A stretch of 4,766 bases of DNA from a virus (lineage: Duplodnaviria; Heunggongvirae; Uroviricota; Caudoviricetes). This document shows positions 1 through 4,486 of the stretch, piece by piece (the stretch's first letter is position 1; each line of letters begins with the position of its first letter). The position numbers and the translations under genes are program-made. The stretch covers positions 1 to 4,766 of IMG/VR virus record IMGVR_UViG_3300026367_000039; one strand, given 5' to 3'. Under the pieces are notes generated by a model. It had not been told where the DNA came from and ran no database searches. It saw only the letters and a list, made by a program, of their open reading frames with translations.

Positions 1-24
1 CAATTTGGTGCGATCATAAAGCCA

Positions 25-53
25 TGAAATTACTCAGAATTGCCTACGATAAT
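25..53 (+). promoter_or_regulatory. candidate promoter for the plus-strand gene pair (weak)
   Basis: Lower-GC leader with a GATAAT -10-like hexamer at 48-53 and a poor -35 (TGAAAT, 25-30) at 17-nt spacing. Speculative. Confidence 0.12.
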
Positions 54-113
54 CAGTGCGCTGGAGCGAATGACATCACACCCAAACGATGCAACTCACC
101 ACGGAGCCACCAC

Positions 114-515
114 ATGACCACGCACGCCATCCTGCCCAGCCGCAACGAGGACCACGGGTTCTTCGGCACCCTGACCGTCTGCCCCCAGCGCGACCGCCGT
201 AGCGCGGAGGTCTGGACGCTCGCATCGACCCTGATTGCCAAAGCCATCCACGCGAACAGCGAGGACGACATGATCGGGATCCGCGACTTCCTCGACAGCT
301 GCATGGGCCGTCAATTCGCCGATGATGTGGTCAGCAACCTGATGGGTTGCAGCCTCGAGCTCGAGACCGCCATCACCTCCGCGATCCGCCGCTGGCAGGA
401 CTGGCGCATCAGCCGCCAGACCCAACGCGACGAGGGCATCCCAGCAGGCCTGCCTTACTTGACCGGCTGGGTGCAGCACTTCGCTGTCGCCGCCGCGATG
501 GCCGAGAGCGAGTGA
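114..515 (+). CDS. hypothetical protein (133 aa from ATG 114; longest ORF begins at 24)
   Basis: Open frame with strong GC3 codon bias through to TGA at 513-515. ATG at 114 is preceded by GGAG (103-106) at 7-nt spacing, whereas the ATG at 24 lies in lower-GC sequence with no Shine-Dalgarno. No family recognised by eye. Confidence 0.5.
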   Translation: MTTHAILPSRNEDHGFFGTLTVCPQRDRRSAEVWTLASTLIAKAIHANSEDDMIGIRDFLDSCMGRQFADDVVSNLMGCSLELETAITSAIRRWQDWRISRQTQRDEGIPAGLPYLTGWVQHFAVAAAMAESE

Positions 516-551: not shown

Positions 552-1133
552 ATGCCCAAACTCACCGACACCCAGACCATCGTGCTCAGCCGCGCCGCAA
601 CGCGTCCGGGCAATCTTGCGATGCCGCTGCCAGATGGCCTGCACGGCGCCGCCGCCCAGAAGGCCGTGAGCGCGATGATCACGCGCGGCTGGCTGGAAGA
701 GGTCGAAGCCGACCTTCGGCGCGGCGAGCCGCTCTGGCGCGAGACTGGCGATGGTCACGGCACCACGCTGATCGCCACCGAAGCCGGGCTTGCCGCGATC
801 GGGATCGAGCCGGTGGTGGCGACCACGATGAGCAATCTGCGCAAGGCGAAGCTGGAACTGGCCCCGGAGTTGAAAGATGCGTCCGCAGCGCAGACTGATC
901 CTGCCACGCCCAAGCCCGTCGTCCTCCGCGCGGGCACCAAGCAGGCGCAGATCATCGCATTATTGCAGCGCCCCGAGGGCGCATCGATCGGTGAGATCGT
1001 CGCAGCGACCGGTTGGATGGCCCATAGCGCCCGTGGCCTGATCTCGGGCGGCTTGAAAAAGAAGCTGGGACTGCCGATCACTGCCGAGAAAGTCGATCAG
1101 CGCGGCACCGTGTACAAACTGGTTACGGCCTGA
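552..1133 (+). CDS. DUF3489-family protein (putative winged-helix-like DNA-binding protein typical of alphaproteobacterial mobile elements)
   Basis: ATG 552 preceded by a perfect AGGAGG (541-546) at 5-nt spacing. The C-terminal segment TKQAQIIALLQRPEGASIGEIVAATGWMAHSARGLISGGLKKKLGLPI matches my recollection of the DUF3489 signature (LL.R..GAT..EI..ATGW..HS.RG..SG...KK.GL). Strong GC3 bias. Confidence 0.8.
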   Translation: MPKLTDTQTIVLSRAATRPGNLAMPLPDGLHGAAAQKAVSAMITRGWLEEVEADLRRGEPLWRETGDGHGTTLIATEAGLAAIGIEPVVATTMSNLRKAKLELAPELKDASAAQTDPATPKPVVLRAGTKQAQIIALLQRPEGASIGEIVAATGWMAHSARGLISGGLKKKLGLPITAEKVDQRGTVYKLVTA

Positions 1134-1142
1134 TCCCAGCCA

Positions 1143-1355
1143 TTACCGCCAGCGCGCGAACAGTCTGCGCAGCGCGTAGCTGCGCAGCAGGGATATGCCG
1201 ACGAAAACTGCGCCCAGCGCAAGATTGTCACCAAGGCTCGGATGCAGACCGAACCACGGGAACACCACGATCTGCGTGGCGACGGCCAGCACATAGCCCA
1301 GCGCGACATTGCTCGCGGCCTCGATCAGAGACATGCGGCGCGACTGGGCAGTCAT
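1143..1355 (-). CDS. small (70 aa) predicted two-helix membrane protein, translationally coupled to the upstream methyltransferase
   Basis: Start ATG (1355..1353) overlaps the TGA stop of the upstream gene (1354..1352) as ATGA. A strong AGGAGG (reverse complement of 1364-1369) sits 8 nt upstream. Two hydrophobic stretches (ALGYVLAVATQIVVFPWFGL and LALGAVFVGISLL) and a basic C-terminus (RRLFARWR). High GC3. Confidence 0.55.
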   Translation of the reverse strand: MTAQSRRMSLIEAASNVALGYVLAVATQIVVFPWFGLHPSLGDNLALGAVFVGISLLRSYALRRLFARWR

Positions 1356-2725
1356 GCGCGTTTCCTCCTGCGACGCGCCGGGCTCTTGGCCTCAGTTGGT
1401 TCCGCGACACGGTTGGCTGTCCGTCCCGTCGCCAGTTCCCAGCGCCGCACGGCGACGTCGCAGTAAGCGGGGTCCAGTTCCATCGCAAAACACCTCCGCC
1501 CAGCACGTTCGGCGGCCACCAGCTGGGTGCCAGAGCCGCAGAACGGCTCGTAGATCAGGTCGCCCGGATCGGTGAACGCCGTCAGCACTGCTTCAACCAG
1601 CGCCACCGGAAACACTGCGGGATGCGATCCGGCCGCGCCCAGCCCGCCCTTGTGACGCATGATGCGGAACACGCTGTCTGGGATGCGATGACTCTGGATC
1701 GCATTGCCGAAGCCCGTCTTGCGATGGACCGCGCCATCCGCCCCGCGCAAACCCCCACCGCCGAGGATCTCGCCCGCGTGCTTGCTCTCGACCGTCTTGT
1801 GCGGTTTGCGGGGCGCGCGGTTGAAGTGGAAAATGAACTCGTGCGACGGGGCCAGTCGGCCGTTCCAATCGCCCGGCAGGCCGGGCCCCTGATCCCAGAC
1901 ATACCAGCCAAACCGTCGCCAGCCAGATGCGCGCATCCATTCCACCCATCCTTCCCAATAGGGCTGCCATTCGCTGTCGCGATGCACGAGGCCAAGGTTG
2001 ACCAGCAGCTGGGCATCGGCGCAGACCGGTGCGGCAGCGAACACGCCCTGCACCAGCGCATCCCAATCGCCGACCTTTTCCTTGGCCGCGCCGTAGTCGC
2101 GTTGCTGGGCGTAGGGCGGCGAGGTGAACATCAGCGTCGCCGCCTCATTCTGCATCAGCTTGGCGACGGCGGCGGGATCGGTCGCATCGCCACAGCAGAG
2201 CCGGTGCTTGCCCAGCGCCCAGATGTCGCCCGGACGCGTGATAGGTTCAGCGGGCGGTTCGGGGATGGCGTCGGCCGCATCGTCGGAAATCACCGGGCGG
2301 TCGTCGGCGTCTGCCAACAGCGCGTCCAGTTCATCCTCGGGGATCCCGATCAGCCCGAGGTCGAAATCCTCTGCCAGCAGCGCCTGCAATTCCTGCAACA
2401 GCAGCGCTTCGTCCCAGCCGCCCAGCTCGGTTAACTTATTGTCAGCGATGCGATAAGCCCGGCGCTGCGCCTCGGTCAGATGGCCAAGAATGATGACGGG
2501 GGCCTCGGTCAGCCCAAGGTGTGCAGCTGCCAGGACGCGACCGTGGCCTGCGATCAACTCGCCATCAGCCGCGACCAGCACCGGCACGGTCCAACCGAAC
2601 TCGGCCATGCTGGCGGCGATCTTCGCGACCTGATTTGCATCGTGGGTCTTGGCGTTGCGGGCGTAAGGCTTCAGACGGGCAAGGGGCCAGTGCTCGATCC
2701 GGCCCGGCAGGATGGGTGCGTTCAT
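1352..2725 (-). CDS. ParB-like N-terminal domain fused to a beta-class DNA methyltransferase, SPPY variant (possibly N4-cytosine); 457 aa
   Basis: N-terminus MNAPILPGRIEHWPLARLKPYARNAK...DGELIAGHGRVLAAA carries the ParB/Srx-fold G-H-x-R motif. Motif IV is TSPPY, followed by HPAVFP and then the AdoMet motif I EPFCGSGTQ, i.e. beta-class order IV before I. Start placed at ATG 2725 (not the longest-ORF ATG at 2860) because the paralog alignment begins there and it forms an ATGA overlap with the upstream gene's stop. Confidence 0.85.
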   Translation of the reverse strand: MNAPILPGRIEHWPLARLKPYARNAKTHDANQVAKIAASMAEFGWTVPVLVAADGELIAGHGRVLAAAHLGLTEAPVIILGHLTEAQRRAYRIADNKLTELGGWDEALLLQELQALLAEDFDLGLIGIPEDELDALLADADDRPVISDDAADAIPEPPAEPITRPGDIWALGKHRLCCGDATDPAAVAKLMQNEAATLMFTSPPYAQQRDYGAAKEKVGDWDALVQGVFAAAPVCADAQLLVNLGLVHRDSEWQPYWEGWVEWMRASGWRRFGWYVWDQGPGLPGDWNGRLAPSHEFIFHFNRAPRKPHKTVESKHAGEILGGGGLRGADGAVHRKTGFGNAIQSHRIPDSVFRIMRHKGGLGAAGSHPAVFPVALVEAVLTAFTDPGDLIYEPFCGSGTQLVAAERAGRRCFAMELDPAYCDVAVRRWELATGRTANRVAEPTEAKSPARRRRKRA

Positions 2726-3981
2726 GCCGCCAGCCTCTTCGCCTTCAGGTCGGCAAAAGTCTCGCCAGTCTCGACCAGCGCGGCATTGGCGCCGGTGAAC
2801 TGCTGCCAGCGCTCGATGGCGACATCGACGTAAGCCGGGTTCAATTCGATGCCGAAGCACACGCGCCCGGTGGTTTCCGCCGCGATCAGCGTTGTGCCGG
2901 ACCCCATGAAAGGTTCAAACACCGCCTGACCGGGGCTGGAGTTGTTCAGGATCGGCCGGCGCATGCATTCGACCGGCTTTTGCGTGCCGTGCACGGTGGC
3001 AGCGTCCTGATCCTTGCCGGAGATGTGCCACAGCGTGGTCTGTTTCCGGTCCCCGGCCCAGTGGCCCTTGCCGGTCTTCTTCACCGCGTACCAGCAGGGT
3101 TCATGCTGCCAGTGATAGTCGCCCCGGCTGAGAACCAGCCGGTCCTTTGCCCAGATGATCTGCGAGCGCACGTTGAAGCCTGCCGCCACCAGGCTTTCCG
3201 CGACGGTCGCCGCGTGCAGCGCGCCATGCCAGACGTAAGCCACGTCGCCTGGGAACAGCGCCCAAGCCTCGCGCCAATCCGCGCGGTCATCGTTCAGCAC
3301 CTTGCCTATGCGCTTGGTTTTGGCGGCCCCCGCCTGGTTGCGCCAGGATGGGTCATATTCCACGCCATAGGGCGGGTCCGTCACCATCAGCAGAGGGCGA
3401 ATATCGCCCAGCAATCGCCCGACCACATCCGCAGACGTGCTGTCGCCGCAGATCAGCCGGTGCGATCCCAGCTGCCAAAGGTCGCCCACAACCGACACCG
3501 GCGTGACCGGCGGTTCGGGAATGTCATCCTCTCCGTCGGCAGCGCCACCTTCCAACTGGTCCGGGTCGCGCAGCAATGCATCCAGATCCTCGTCGGTGAT
3601 GCCCAGCAGCGACAGGTCGAAATCGTCGGCGAGCAGTCCCGCGATCTCATCGCGCAGCATCGCCTCGTCCCACTCGCCCAGCTCGGTCAATTTGTTGTCC
3701 GCGATCCGGTAGGCGCGGCGCTCTGCCTCGTCGAGATGGCTGAGCCGGATCACCGGCACATCCTTCAGCCCCAGCATGGCGGCCGCCAGCACACGGCCAT
3801 GCCCCGCGATCAGCTCGCCATCGTCGGCCACCATGCAGGGCACTGTCCAGCCGAACTTTGCCATGCTTGCTGCGATCTTGGCAACCTGGTCGGTGCCGTG
3901 GATCTTGGCGTTGCGGGCATAGGGGCGCAGCCGGTCAATCGGCCACGTCTCGATCTGGCTCGGTGCAAAGACCAGGTCCAT
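2722..3981 (-). CDS. ParB-like N-terminal domain fused to a beta-class N6-adenine DNA methyltransferase (CcrM/HinfI-like motifs); 419 aa
   Basis: N-terminus MDLVFAPSQIETWPIDRLRPYARNAK...DGELIAGHGRVLAAA (ParB-like). Motif IV VTDPPYG, then HGTQKP and FEPFMGSGTT, matching the CcrM-type DPPY / TQKP / FxGxGTT pattern in beta-class order. Strong GC3 bias; TGA stop at 2724..2722. Confidence 0.9.
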   Translation of the reverse strand: MDLVFAPSQIETWPIDRLRPYARNAKIHGTDQVAKIAASMAKFGWTVPCMVADDGELIAGHGRVLAAAMLGLKDVPVIRLSHLDEAERRAYRIADNKLTELGEWDEAMLRDEIAGLLADDFDLSLLGITDEDLDALLRDPDQLEGGAADGEDDIPEPPVTPVSVVGDLWQLGSHRLICGDSTSADVVGRLLGDIRPLLMVTDPPYGVEYDPSWRNQAGAAKTKRIGKVLNDDRADWREAWALFPGDVAYVWHGALHAATVAESLVAAGFNVRSQIIWAKDRLVLSRGDYHWQHEPCWYAVKKTGKGHWAGDRKQTTLWHISGKDQDAATVHGTQKPVECMRRPILNNSSPGQAVFEPFMGSGTTLIAAETTGRVCFGIELNPAYVDVAIERWQQFTGANAALVETGETFADLKAKRLAA

Positions 3982-4105
3982 GGGCGGTTCTCATTTGGGC
4001 AGAGCGGGCATGCCAACGGGCGCGGGCAATATGGCCAGCGACAGGATCGGGATCCGCGATGTGGGGGAAAACGAAAGCGCCCGAGAGGGGTGTCATCCGG
4101 GCGCA

Positions 4106-4133
4106 ATTCTTCGATGATTAAGAGGTACGTCAA
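4106..4133 (-). promoter_or_regulatory. candidate sigma70-like promoter for the methyltransferase operon (weak)
   Basis: On the minus strand, TTGACG (reverse complement of 4128-4133), a 16-nt spacer, then AAGAAT (reverse complement of 4106-4111), about 120 nt upstream of ATG 3981. The -10 match is only 4/6, so this is a by-eye guess. Confidence 0.15.
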
Positions 4134-4220
4134 GGGGGCTAGAAATGTCAACCCATTTTATGACGTGGAATCAACGCGTTCTGCGGGTTCGGGGTTTGCG
4201 GGGAAAAGCCGGTGTCGCGA

Positions 4221-4270
4221 GTGGCTTTCCGGGGTGGCTTTCTGGCCAGCGTGGCTACCAAAAAGTGGCT
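4221..4270. repeat. array of four direct GTGGCT(T) repeats (iteron-like or operator-like)
   Basis: GTGGCT at 4221, 4234, 4251 and 4265 (GTGGCTTTCC, GTGGCTTTCT, GTGGCTACCA, GTGGCTTGCC), spaced 13, 17 and 14 bp. About 0.01 occurrences of one oriented hexamer are expected by chance in 50 bp. Confidence 0.6.
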
Positions 4271-4274
4271 TGCC

Positions 4275-4295
4275 TGGATTCCACCGAGGAATCCA
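4275..4295. repeat. perfect 8-bp inverted repeat TGGATTCC-N5-GGAATCCA (candidate dimeric protein-binding site)
   Basis: TGGATTCC (4275-4282) and GGAATCCA (4288-4295) are exact reverse complements around the spacer ACCGA. Each arm contains a GANTC site. It lies immediately after the GTGGCT array. Confidence 0.6.
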
Positions 4296-4351
4296 CTTAG
4301 CCAGAAGGGTGAGACCCTAAGCATTTGATAATGAGTCAAAATTCAGGGTCG

Positions 4352-4397
4352 AGCCACTGGCTTGGCTTCGAAGTGGATTCCCCGGTGAAAAAGCCAC
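4352..4397. repeat. two opposite-orientation copies of the GTGGCT motif flanking TGGCTT repeats and a third TGGATTCC
   Basis: AGCCAC (reverse complement of GTGGCT) at 4352-4357 and 4392-4397; TGGCTT at 4358-4363 and 4363-4368; TGGATTCC again at 4374-4381. Confidence 0.5.
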
Positions 4398-4421
4398 GCG
4401 CTAGCGAAATGCCGCGCTAAG

Positions 4422-4468
4422 CCCCCCCGTATACGGATAGGGCCGGGGAGGAACCATGCTGGGGGGGG
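4422..4468. other. C7 homopolymer, 10-bp perfect palindrome CCGTATACGG, and G8 homopolymer
   Basis: C-tract 4422-4428, palindrome 4427-4436, G-tract 4461-4468. The C and G tracts are complementary and could pair, or could act as slipped-strand tracts. Confidence 0.5.
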
Positions 4469-4486
4469 TCGTGTCGGTTCCGGCCC
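4440..4486. other. GC-rich imperfect hairpin (about 11 bp of stem, 20-nt loop)
   Basis: GGGCCG (4440-4445) pairs with CGGCCC (4481-4486) and GAACC (4451-4455) pairs with GGTTC (4476-4480). No downstream T-tract, so it is not a typical intrinsic terminator. Confidence 0.35.

Follow-up and report, generated by a model that had tools for sequence, protein, structure and literature searches.

A tandem of ParB-fold methyltransferase genes with DPPY and SPPY motifs in phage DNA: module history, distribution and predicted targets

The two fusion genes and their domains

We analysed a pair of adjacent genes, each encoding a fusion of an N-terminal ParB-like domain and a DNA methyltransferase, in the IMG/VR record IMGVR_UViG_3300026367_000039 (4,766 nucleotides of DNA from a tailed phage; this whole stretch is hereinafter called the window). 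According to the list of open reading frames (ORFs) and Pfam matches, the minus strand carries three consecutive genes, the upstream methyltransferase gene A, the downstream methyltransferase gene B, and a gene of the DUF7220 family (Table 1). The original prediction, made from the sequence only, had placed the tandem at 1352-3981 in one operon, and these coordinates match exactly. Both junctions in the operon are ATGA overlaps, the second one with AGGAGG before it, hence the three genes make up a single, translationally coupled operon. For gene B the preferred start is ATG 2725; we rejected a 502-aa variant starting from GTG 2860, as it would overlap gene A and homologs begin at ATG. A 599-aa plus-strand ORF (2521..4320) and other long ORFs overlapping A and B in other frames have no support and were taken as high-GC artefacts.

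Table 1. Predicted genes, domains, motifs and non-coding features of the window (coordinates of the 4,766-nucleotide stretch).
Feature	Coordinates	Strand	Description and basis
Gene A	2722..3981	-	419 aa; ParB-fold::beta-class methyltransferase, motif IV TDPPY; core gene of the locus; ORF; Pfam PF01555 E 2e-21; phrog_498 E 2.5e-154; AlphaFold2 (AF2) model and Foldseek
Gene B	1352..2725	-	457 aa; ParB-fold::beta-class methyltransferase, motif IV TSPPY; accessory cassette; ORF; Pfam PF01555 E 1e-19; phrog_498 E 7.8e-118; AF2 model (predicted local distance difference test, pLDDT, 74) and Foldseek
DUF7220 gene, third in the operon	1143..1355	-	70 aa, small hydrophobic; Pfam PF23858 E 4e-32; phrog_4276
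ATGA overlap, stop of A / start of B	2722..2725	-	4 bp; junction gcggcATGAac
ATGA overlap, stop of B / start of DUF7220	1352..1355	-	AGGAGG 8 nt upstream
ParB/Srx-fold N-domain of A	3562..3957	-	residues ~9-140; box II AGHGR; phrog_620 E 1.7e-49; Foldseek to Noc, KorB, ParB
ParB/Srx-fold N-domain of B	2306..2698	-	residues ~10-140; box II AGHGR; phrog_620 E 2e-50; Foldseek to ParB-CDP 6sdk E 2e-6
Motif IV DPPY of A	3367..3378	-	residues 202-205 (TDPPY 201-205)
Motif IV SPPY of B	2111..2122	-	residues 202-205 (TSPPY 201-205)
HPAVFP motif of B	1607..1624	-	residues 368-373; invariant in 48 homologs
Motif I FMGSG of A (S-adenosylmethionine, AdoMet, binding)	2896..2910	-	residues 358-362
Motif I FCGSG of B	1529..1543	-	residues 395-399
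Conserved non-coding region upstream of A	3982..4470	-	~490 bp; blastn to 56-73 related loci; conservation ends near 4470
Sigma-70-like promoter match TTGACG-16-AAGAAT	4106..4133	-	most conserved upstream stretch, 0.78-0.90
GC-rich hairpin (4104-4077) and T-tract (4076-4068)	4068..4104	-	terminator-like, operon leader, directly after the promoter match
Six AGCCAC motifs	4221..4397	.	four direct at 4221-4270, two inverted at 4352 and 4392
phrog_8020 protein	24..515	+	converges on the operon
DUF3489 protein (phrog_10315)	552..1133	+	converges on the operon

The two proteins align end to end at 42% identity (BLASTP, E 1e-85). In the N-terminal 140 aa they share 97/140 residues (69.3%), close to the value of about 70% (96/137) claimed at the outset. 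The description of the two genes as full-length paralogs is nevertheless misleading: the methyltransferase modules, 31% identical, are old distinct types, each of which is kept between phages of alpha- and beta/gamma-proteobacteria, and only the ParB module is alike within a genome.

Motif IV occupies the identical position (residues 201-205) in both proteins, and the difference between DPPY in the upstream and SPPY in the downstream gene, pointed out in the original prediction, is not only present but fixed, as DPPY was observed in all 150 A-type genes surveyed and SPPY in all 164 B-type genes. In both proteins motif IV is N-terminal, the variable region lies in the middle, and motif I (FxGxG) is C-terminal, which is the order of the beta class. 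The distance from motif IV to the next motif is ~127 aa in A and ~162 aa in B; thus, the lengths of 135 and 170 aa given earlier were overestimated, while the difference of about 35 aa and the dissimilarity of the sequences were noticed correctly. Indeed, the variable stretches of A and B are essentially unalignable (0-20% identity per 30 columns). In B, the motifs of the target-recognition region are invariant across 48 homologs at 48-94% identity, which suggests one conserved specificity. The C-terminus of B (1355-1384, minus strand) forms a strongly basic tail, SPARRRRKRA, that is seen neither in A nor in the Roseicitreum ortholog.

Both proteins match the Pfam family PF01555 (N6_N4_Mtase) well above the cut-off of 26.7 bits (A, 77.3; B, 71.9), as well as the Type II methyltransferase model PDLC03229. 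The AF2 models of both proteins yield Foldseek matches of probability 1.00 to the solved beta-class enzymes CcrM, TTHA0409, M.BceJIV, HpyAVI, MboIIA, RsrI, PvuII and N4CMT (E 1e-9 to 1e-11 for B, 1e-5 to 1e-6 for A). Both AdoMet-binding folds are thus intact, and the loss of the fold, which had been named as a reason to abandon the prediction, was not observed. A TQKP motif is indeed present in A (residues 333-336), but the CcrM-like character ascribed to it extends to beta-class enzymes in general: with the CcrM equivalog NF050803 of NCBIfam (cut-off 830 bits), A scores 49 bits and B 42.7 bits, and A is not a CcrM ortholog. We also considered the CcrM-like specificity GANTC for A, based on its 53% identity to a gene of Aurantimonas phage AmM-1 and on a remark in PMC6536676, and rejected it, since the phage enzymes experimentally known to be specific for GANTC are of the NPPY/W/F type and unrelated to the A family, and since A is far under the CcrM cut-off.

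The ParB-like module expected in both proteins is sub-threshold in Pfam itself (PF02195, 17-18 bits vs the cut-off of 26.3; the match is precomputed on most homologs), but was recovered by other comparisons. The N-domains match PHROG 620, 'ParB-like partition protein' (E ~1e-50), the N-domain of B aligns with Spo0J (E 2e-5; GHGR opposite GERR), and both AF2 models match the N-domains of ParB-CDP/CTP, Noc and KorB (Foldseek, E 1e-5 to 1e-6). Residues A59, G60, H61, G62 and R63 of A are invariant in 40 homologs; compared with the GERRxR patch, the GHGR of box II retains only the last arginine, R63. As loss of the equivalent arginine abolishes nucleotide binding in other ParB-fold proteins (PMC12704722), nucleotide binding by the ParB modules of A and B is possible. 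These proteins differ from the canonical ParB of ParABS systems: the ParB-fold domain runs straight into the methyltransferase and not into the helix-turn-helix and C-terminal dimerisation domains of ParB, the scores with TIGR00180 (ParB) are 19-23 bits at the cut-off of 58, and there is no parA gene in the window or the related loci.

Phage setting, distribution and history of the modules

All five window proteins match PHROG families. The window is part of a lambda-like temperate phage (prophage) of Paracoccaceae, and the pair occupies the 'ParB-Tls' locus, a known site of DNA modification that precedes the terminase genes. The same pair is found on a plasmid of Roseicitreum antarcticum ZS2-28 (86% DNA identity), next to genes for terminase, protease, decoration and capsid proteins, and a metagenomic contig with a 94% identical B runs on into GpA terminase, portal, S49 protease, HDPD and capsid E. 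By synteny, the ParB-Tls arrangement is observed in the loci L001, L003 and L165-L168 and in Acidithiobacillus phage AcaML1. In Paracoccus prophages, 36 ParB-fused m6A/m4C methyltransferases have been reported, all of them upstream of terminase genes (PMC6536676), and, according to a proposal relayed in the same paper, the ParB part would guide the modification apparatus during packaging. More generally, fusions of the ParB-CTPase fold with N6_N4 methyltransferases are enriched in phages and prophages (PMC12704722). Since the element is a prophage and not a plasmid leading region, protection would be imprinted on progeny DNA before or during packaging.

No restriction endonuclease partner was found in the window or in the conserved flanks of ~240 related loci, where the neighbours are DUF7220, DUF3489 and phrog_8020. 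Thus, the pair does not belong to a Type II restriction-modification system, and A and B are orphan methyltransferases; an orphan N4-methylcytosine (4mC) enzyme of a phage has a precedent (PMC4936722). The organisation of the genes as an orphan operon fits an anti-restriction role.

At least 597 IMG/VR contigs match each of A and B. From the search with B we fetched 80 contigs (83-94% identity), and A is immediately upstream of B in all 76 loci with room upstream; the contig index has no exact match to protein B on record. A profile search led by Gp24 of AcaML1 added 374 further contigs, with the reversed order (B then A) in 72 loci, and deposited examples of this order are AcaML1 itself (Gp24/Gp25) and Ralstonia phage YO164_3. 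The DPPY/SPPY pair is already annotated in Paracoccus prophages and GenBank phage records, and hence is an abundant and known arrangement.

The two genes are not equally often found without each other. When loci were sampled via A (homologs at 76-97% identity, n = 81), B was present in 30, while in the other 51 A was followed straight by DUF7220 or DUF3489; B is missing even beside A proteins that are 96-97% identical. Vice versa, sampling via B yielded 149 tandems with an A-type gene, 14 loci at contig ends that carry no information, and a single B that stands alone despite room on either side; in all, A is present in 149 of about 151 informative loci sampled in this way. Since B is present at a minority of A loci and yet nearly always stands beside an A-type gene, we may conclude that B is an accessory cassette, and A, a core gene of the phage lineage. 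In 12 loci with the order A>B and six with the order B>A, an insertion of 350-550 bp separates the methyltransferase genes; the one in L003 (1759-2262) codes for a protein of 167 aa that matched no PHROG family and had no significant Pfam hit.

The ParB and methyltransferase modules, compared separately in loci L001-L164, have different histories. The methyltransferase modules group by type, as between the Rhodobacterales and AcaML1-like lineages the identity is 58% for B-B and 42% for A-A pairs, whereas A and B are 31% identical. The ParB modules, vice versa, group by lineage: within the Rhodobacterales lineage A and B are 71% identical in this module, compared to 48-52% to either type elsewhere. 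A neighbour-joining tree built from 60 ParB modules unites those of A and B from the window lineage in 100/100 bootstraps, and the grouping by type is seen in none. The excess of similarity between A and B, as measured in sliding windows, is limited to residues ~16-120. In addition, B pairs with at least two subtypes of A, whose methyltransferase modules are either 38-44% or 64-70% identical to that of the window A. With the ParB modules grouping by lineage and the methyltransferase modules by type, the pair is not the product of a simple tandem duplication. Either gene conversion would homogenise the ParB module, or methyltransferase modules would have been grafted onto a resident ParB module. 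The pattern is compatible with adaptation of the ParB module to something phage-specific, and recombination alone could explain it as well.

Target bases and role of the pair

Taken together, we consider it probable (about 0.7) that the locus is a phage ParB-Tls modification operon with A as the core N6-methyladenine (6mA) enzyme and B as an optional 4mC add-on, both marking the DNA against restriction. The phage would express A, plus B where present, from one operon, with each ParB/Srx-fold domain standing in place of a separate ParB-like protein. After replication, and before or during packaging, A and B would each methylate a motif of their own in the phage DNA, which on injection in the next infection would then withstand more host restriction systems; the ParB module might serve for loading onto DNA or the packaging machinery, perhaps in a nucleotide-dependent manner. 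In this scheme A most likely makes 6mA, B makes 4mC with roughly two chances in three, and the sequence methylated by B is most likely other than the target of A.

The assignment of bases follows from motif IV. The F-T-S-P-P-Y of B at residues 200-205 fits the PROSITE signature N4_MTASE, [LIVMF]-T-S-P-P-[FY], and the M-V-T-D-P-P-Y of A, the signature N6_MTASE, ...[DN]-P-P-[FYW]. An exhaustive HMMER search with the methyltransferase domain of B produced 434 clusters at E ≤ 1e-30 (clusters at 50% identity). Among the top 150 cluster representatives, extending to ~40% identity, there are 131 with SPPY, only one with DPPY, and 18 N-terminally truncated fragments without the motif; hence SPPY is present in 131 of the 132 full-length representatives, some of which are ParB-less proteins of ~280 aa. 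By convention, S-P-P-Y/F marks N4-cytosine enzymes and D/N-P-P-Y, N6-adenine ones, and the characterised SPPY/F beta-class enzymes cited in the literature consulted are N4-cytosine enzymes (PMC6712171, PMC10406627). Fixation of SPPY thus supports, but does not prove, the N4-cytosine specificity of B. Among solved structures, the best sequence relatives of B are the TSPPY protein TTHA0409, followed by M.BceJIV, M.PvuII and the rotifer N4CMT, with PvuII and N4CMT ahead of CcrM; those of A are M.BceJIV, DpnA/M1.HpyAVI, TTHA0409, CcrM and MboIIA, all of them N6-adenine enzymes but for TTHA0409. In a literature search we found no statement on the specificity of TTHA0409.

Several considerations weigh against this reading. 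The motif IV rule, from which the base call of the original prediction derives, is a heuristic. The fold comparison, which we tried as a means to tell 6mA from 4mC enzymes, was uninformative: for either model, Foldseek against solved structures places adenine and cytosine enzymes at about the same level. Moreover, according to references cited in PMC7544214, N4-cytosine enzymes are polyphyletic, and N6 and N4 enzymes cross-react. Decewicz et al. state that the activity of the homologs is yet to be confirmed, and both genes are entered there as 'm4C/m6A' (PMC6536676), while our literature search for a characterised SPPY ParB-methyltransferase or a close relative retrieved none. Confidence in the variable regions is low in both AF2 models (pLDDT <50 in parts), hence the models say nothing about DNA recognition. 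Finally, the window ends before the terminase genes, so the ParB-Tls assignment relies on synteny with relatives.

One alternative is that both enzymes methylate adenine at N6, each at a different sequence, the serine in motif IV of B being a family trait that leaves the target base unchanged. CcrM, M.BceJIV and M1.HpyAVI are also top fold matches for B, the best NCBIfam matches of B are adenine-specific models (all far under their cut-offs), and the published annotation of the pair as 'm4C/m6A' leaves room for this variant. Still, we regard it as unlikely, given the presence of TSPPY in every B-type gene surveyed and in nearly all full-length representatives down to ~40% identity, the cytosine specificity of the characterised SPPY/F enzymes cited above, and the precedence of PvuII and N4CMT over CcrM among the sequence matches of B.

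The almost invariable presence of an A-type gene next to B could also mean that B depends on A in a hetero-oligomer, which would be held together by the lineage-matched ParB modules or the beta-class dimer interface and would place two marks or modify both strands of an asymmetric site. The frequent occurrence of A alone, the translational coupling of the genes and the clustering of their ParB modules by phage lineage agree with that, as does the fact that beta-class methyltransferases act as dimers (PMC7544214), and ParB N-domains dimerise upon nucleotide binding (PMC12704722). However, the pairing of B with at least two quite different A-type modules speaks against a co-evolved catalytic heterodimer; B-type methyltransferase domains occur without ParB, too, in the ~280-aa proteins; and the similarity of the ParB modules is equally well explained by recombination. 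Thus, a hetero-oligomer seems rather improbable to us.

A related and equally doubtful variant is that the SPPY enzyme is an obligate companion of the DPPY ParB-methyltransferase, with the lineage-matched ParB modules co-adapted to the same phage-specific partner, so that the DNA would receive a dual 6mA and 4mC mark at packaging. This shared partner may be the other of the two modules, the packaging machinery or a DNA site of the phage, and A and B may load together, perhaps nucleotide-dependently. If so, the ParB module would be a phage-specific 'adaptor', and the methyltransferase module, an exchangeable 'warhead'.

Methylation could also serve the life cycle of the phage, as a mark for packaging or replication or in the timing of expression, instead of evading restriction. 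The fixed position beside the packaging genes and the retention of A in every relative seen, as expected for a core function, would suit this, and for phage methyltransferases that mimic the host CcrM a function in the phage cycle has been suggested (PMC5537653). On the other hand, B is gained and lost between near-identical phages, which is the pattern of an arms-race accessory, and there is no evidence for a methylation-dependent step; we therefore hold this explanation, too, to be rather unlikely. Finally, a recent tandem duplication with later divergence of catalytic motif and variable region, to which the N-terminal similarity and a 300-nt direct DNA repeat (70% identity, copies 1256 nt apart) might point, is very improbable and the only alternative contradicted by the data, namely by the domain-wise phylogeny, with the excess similarity confined to a part of the ParB module and each of the ~31% identical methyltransferase modules closer to its counterpart in Acidithiobacillus, Ralstonia and other beta/gamma-proteobacterial phages, and by the reversed gene order in phages of the Acidithiobacillus/Ralstonia type.

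The gene pair is very abundant and a cheap target for methylome mapping. At the same time, the ParB module following the phage, the methyltransferase module following the type, B standing beside an A-type gene, and A often standing alone provide a handle on the role of the ParB domain.

Surroundings of the operon and comparison with known systems

The non-coding region upstream of A looks like a regulated operon entry, with a terminator or attenuator and regulator binding sites. For every base pair of the leader hairpin, pairing persists in 50 or more of the 52 unique sequences, and the alifold z-score of the block is -6.4; the hairpin with its T-tract may be a control point for attenuation or antitermination. 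The AGCCAC motif occurs eight times in the window, compared to 3.0 expected, and six of the eight copies are in 4221-4397. The direct copies are spaced by 13-17 bp, with GGAATCCAC inverted repeats alongside, in a conserved non-coding stretch of lower GC content. The motifs are found at similar positions upstream of A in the Rhodobacterales lineage (order A>B), whereas they do not recur in loci of the order B>A; the cluster could be a putative regulator binding array or an origin-like element. Scans of the window for tRNA genes and Rfam families gave no matches.

At the other end of the operon, the DUF7220 gene is translationally coupled to the last methyltransferase gene, and it keeps this position in the A-only loci. 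Most related loci have it directly behind their last methyltransferase gene, and in AcaML1 a 59% identical homolog (L002, 9795-10031) comes after the pair. The small opposite-strand genes (24-1133 in the window; phrog_8020 and DUF3489/phrog_10315) separate the methyltransferase operon from the terminase genes, and this block is kept from Paracoccaceae phages to AcaML1 (DUF3489, 35% identical).

Further genes were observed near the relatives of the pair. On the 104-kb Roseicitreum plasmid pRA03 (L001, 15011-25116) the phage region with the pair adjoins a type ISP restriction/modification enzyme, a DUF262 protein and another methyltransferase; this element may be a phage-plasmid or a prophage within the plasmid. 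Insertions around the terminase genes of related prophages carry toxin-antitoxin pairs (PhD/PIN, CcdA/CcdB) and a HigB toxin gene (L003, 6892-7535; L165, 677-976 and 7915-8456).

The closest known counterparts of the window pair are those of Paracoccus prophages PD17, PD24, PD29, PD47 and PD49 (Decewicz et al. 2019, PMC6536676), for example pd17_p43/p42 of vB_PsaS_PD17. PD47 and PD49 reside in Paracoccus yeei ATCC BAA-599, and PD17 in P. sanguinis. The Paracoccus pairs come from the same host family and have the same order, with a DPPY gene of ~419-420 aa, a 4-bp overlap and an SPPY gene of ~441-444 aa, N-terminal ParB domains in both genes, and a position upstream of the terminase genes. The GenBank supplements of that study note 'DPPY and FGG motifs' and 'SPPY and FGG motifs', while its summary table gives 'm4C/m6A' for both; these supplements carry no translations, so the likeness is judged by annotation. 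That study does not go into the pairing itself, nor into B as an accessory gene or the mosaic history of the modules. A Paracoccus yeei protein is a homolog of B with 85% identity, and its accession is not among the entries of Decewicz et al. Sequenced genomes of Paracoccus, Diaphorobacter sp. JS3050, Stutzerimonas balearica and Tepidimonas also contain close homologs.

In AcaML1, where both proteins are annotated as 'DNA modification methylases', Gp24 is of the B type (TSPPY, HPAVFP, the same variable region; the methyltransferase domain is 58% identical to that of B), and Gp25 is of the A type (TDPPY). AcaML1 resembles the window in the 4-bp overlap, in the DUF7220 homolog coming next, and in the opposite-strand block with a DUF3489 homolog before the terminase and portal genes. 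It differs in the order of genes, B then A, and in its own ParB modules, which are 69% alike, compared to 47-58% similarity to those of the window.

Two general surveys describe this architecture and position. Fusions of the ParB-CTPase fold with N6_N4 methyltransferases have the same architecture and prophage enrichment (PNAS 2025, PMC12704722), although box II of the window proteins is GHGR and not GERRxR as in that fold. The 'ParB-Tls locus' (Iyer et al. 2013, via PMC6536676) shares with the window type the position next to the terminase large subunit. Neither the former survey nor the latter, as relayed, reports specificity or nucleotide binding for this subfamily.

The solved beta-class enzymes CcrM, M.BceJIV, M1.HpyAVI, M.MboIIA and M.RsrI (6mA), M.PvuII and the rotifer N4CMT (4mC), and TTHA0409 have the same fold, the same motif order and a DPPY or SPPY/F site; however, they are only 15-24% identical to the window proteins, none has a ParB domain, and their variable regions are unrelated. 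Finally, M.EcoGIX and M.BceJIII from plasmid leading regions (PMC7736820) are likewise DPPY orphans of the beta class residing on a mobile element, with an anti-restriction rationale. Those enzymes, carried by plasmids, are produced on entry and act on single strands, whereas the genes in the window belong to a packaging-proximal operon of a phage.

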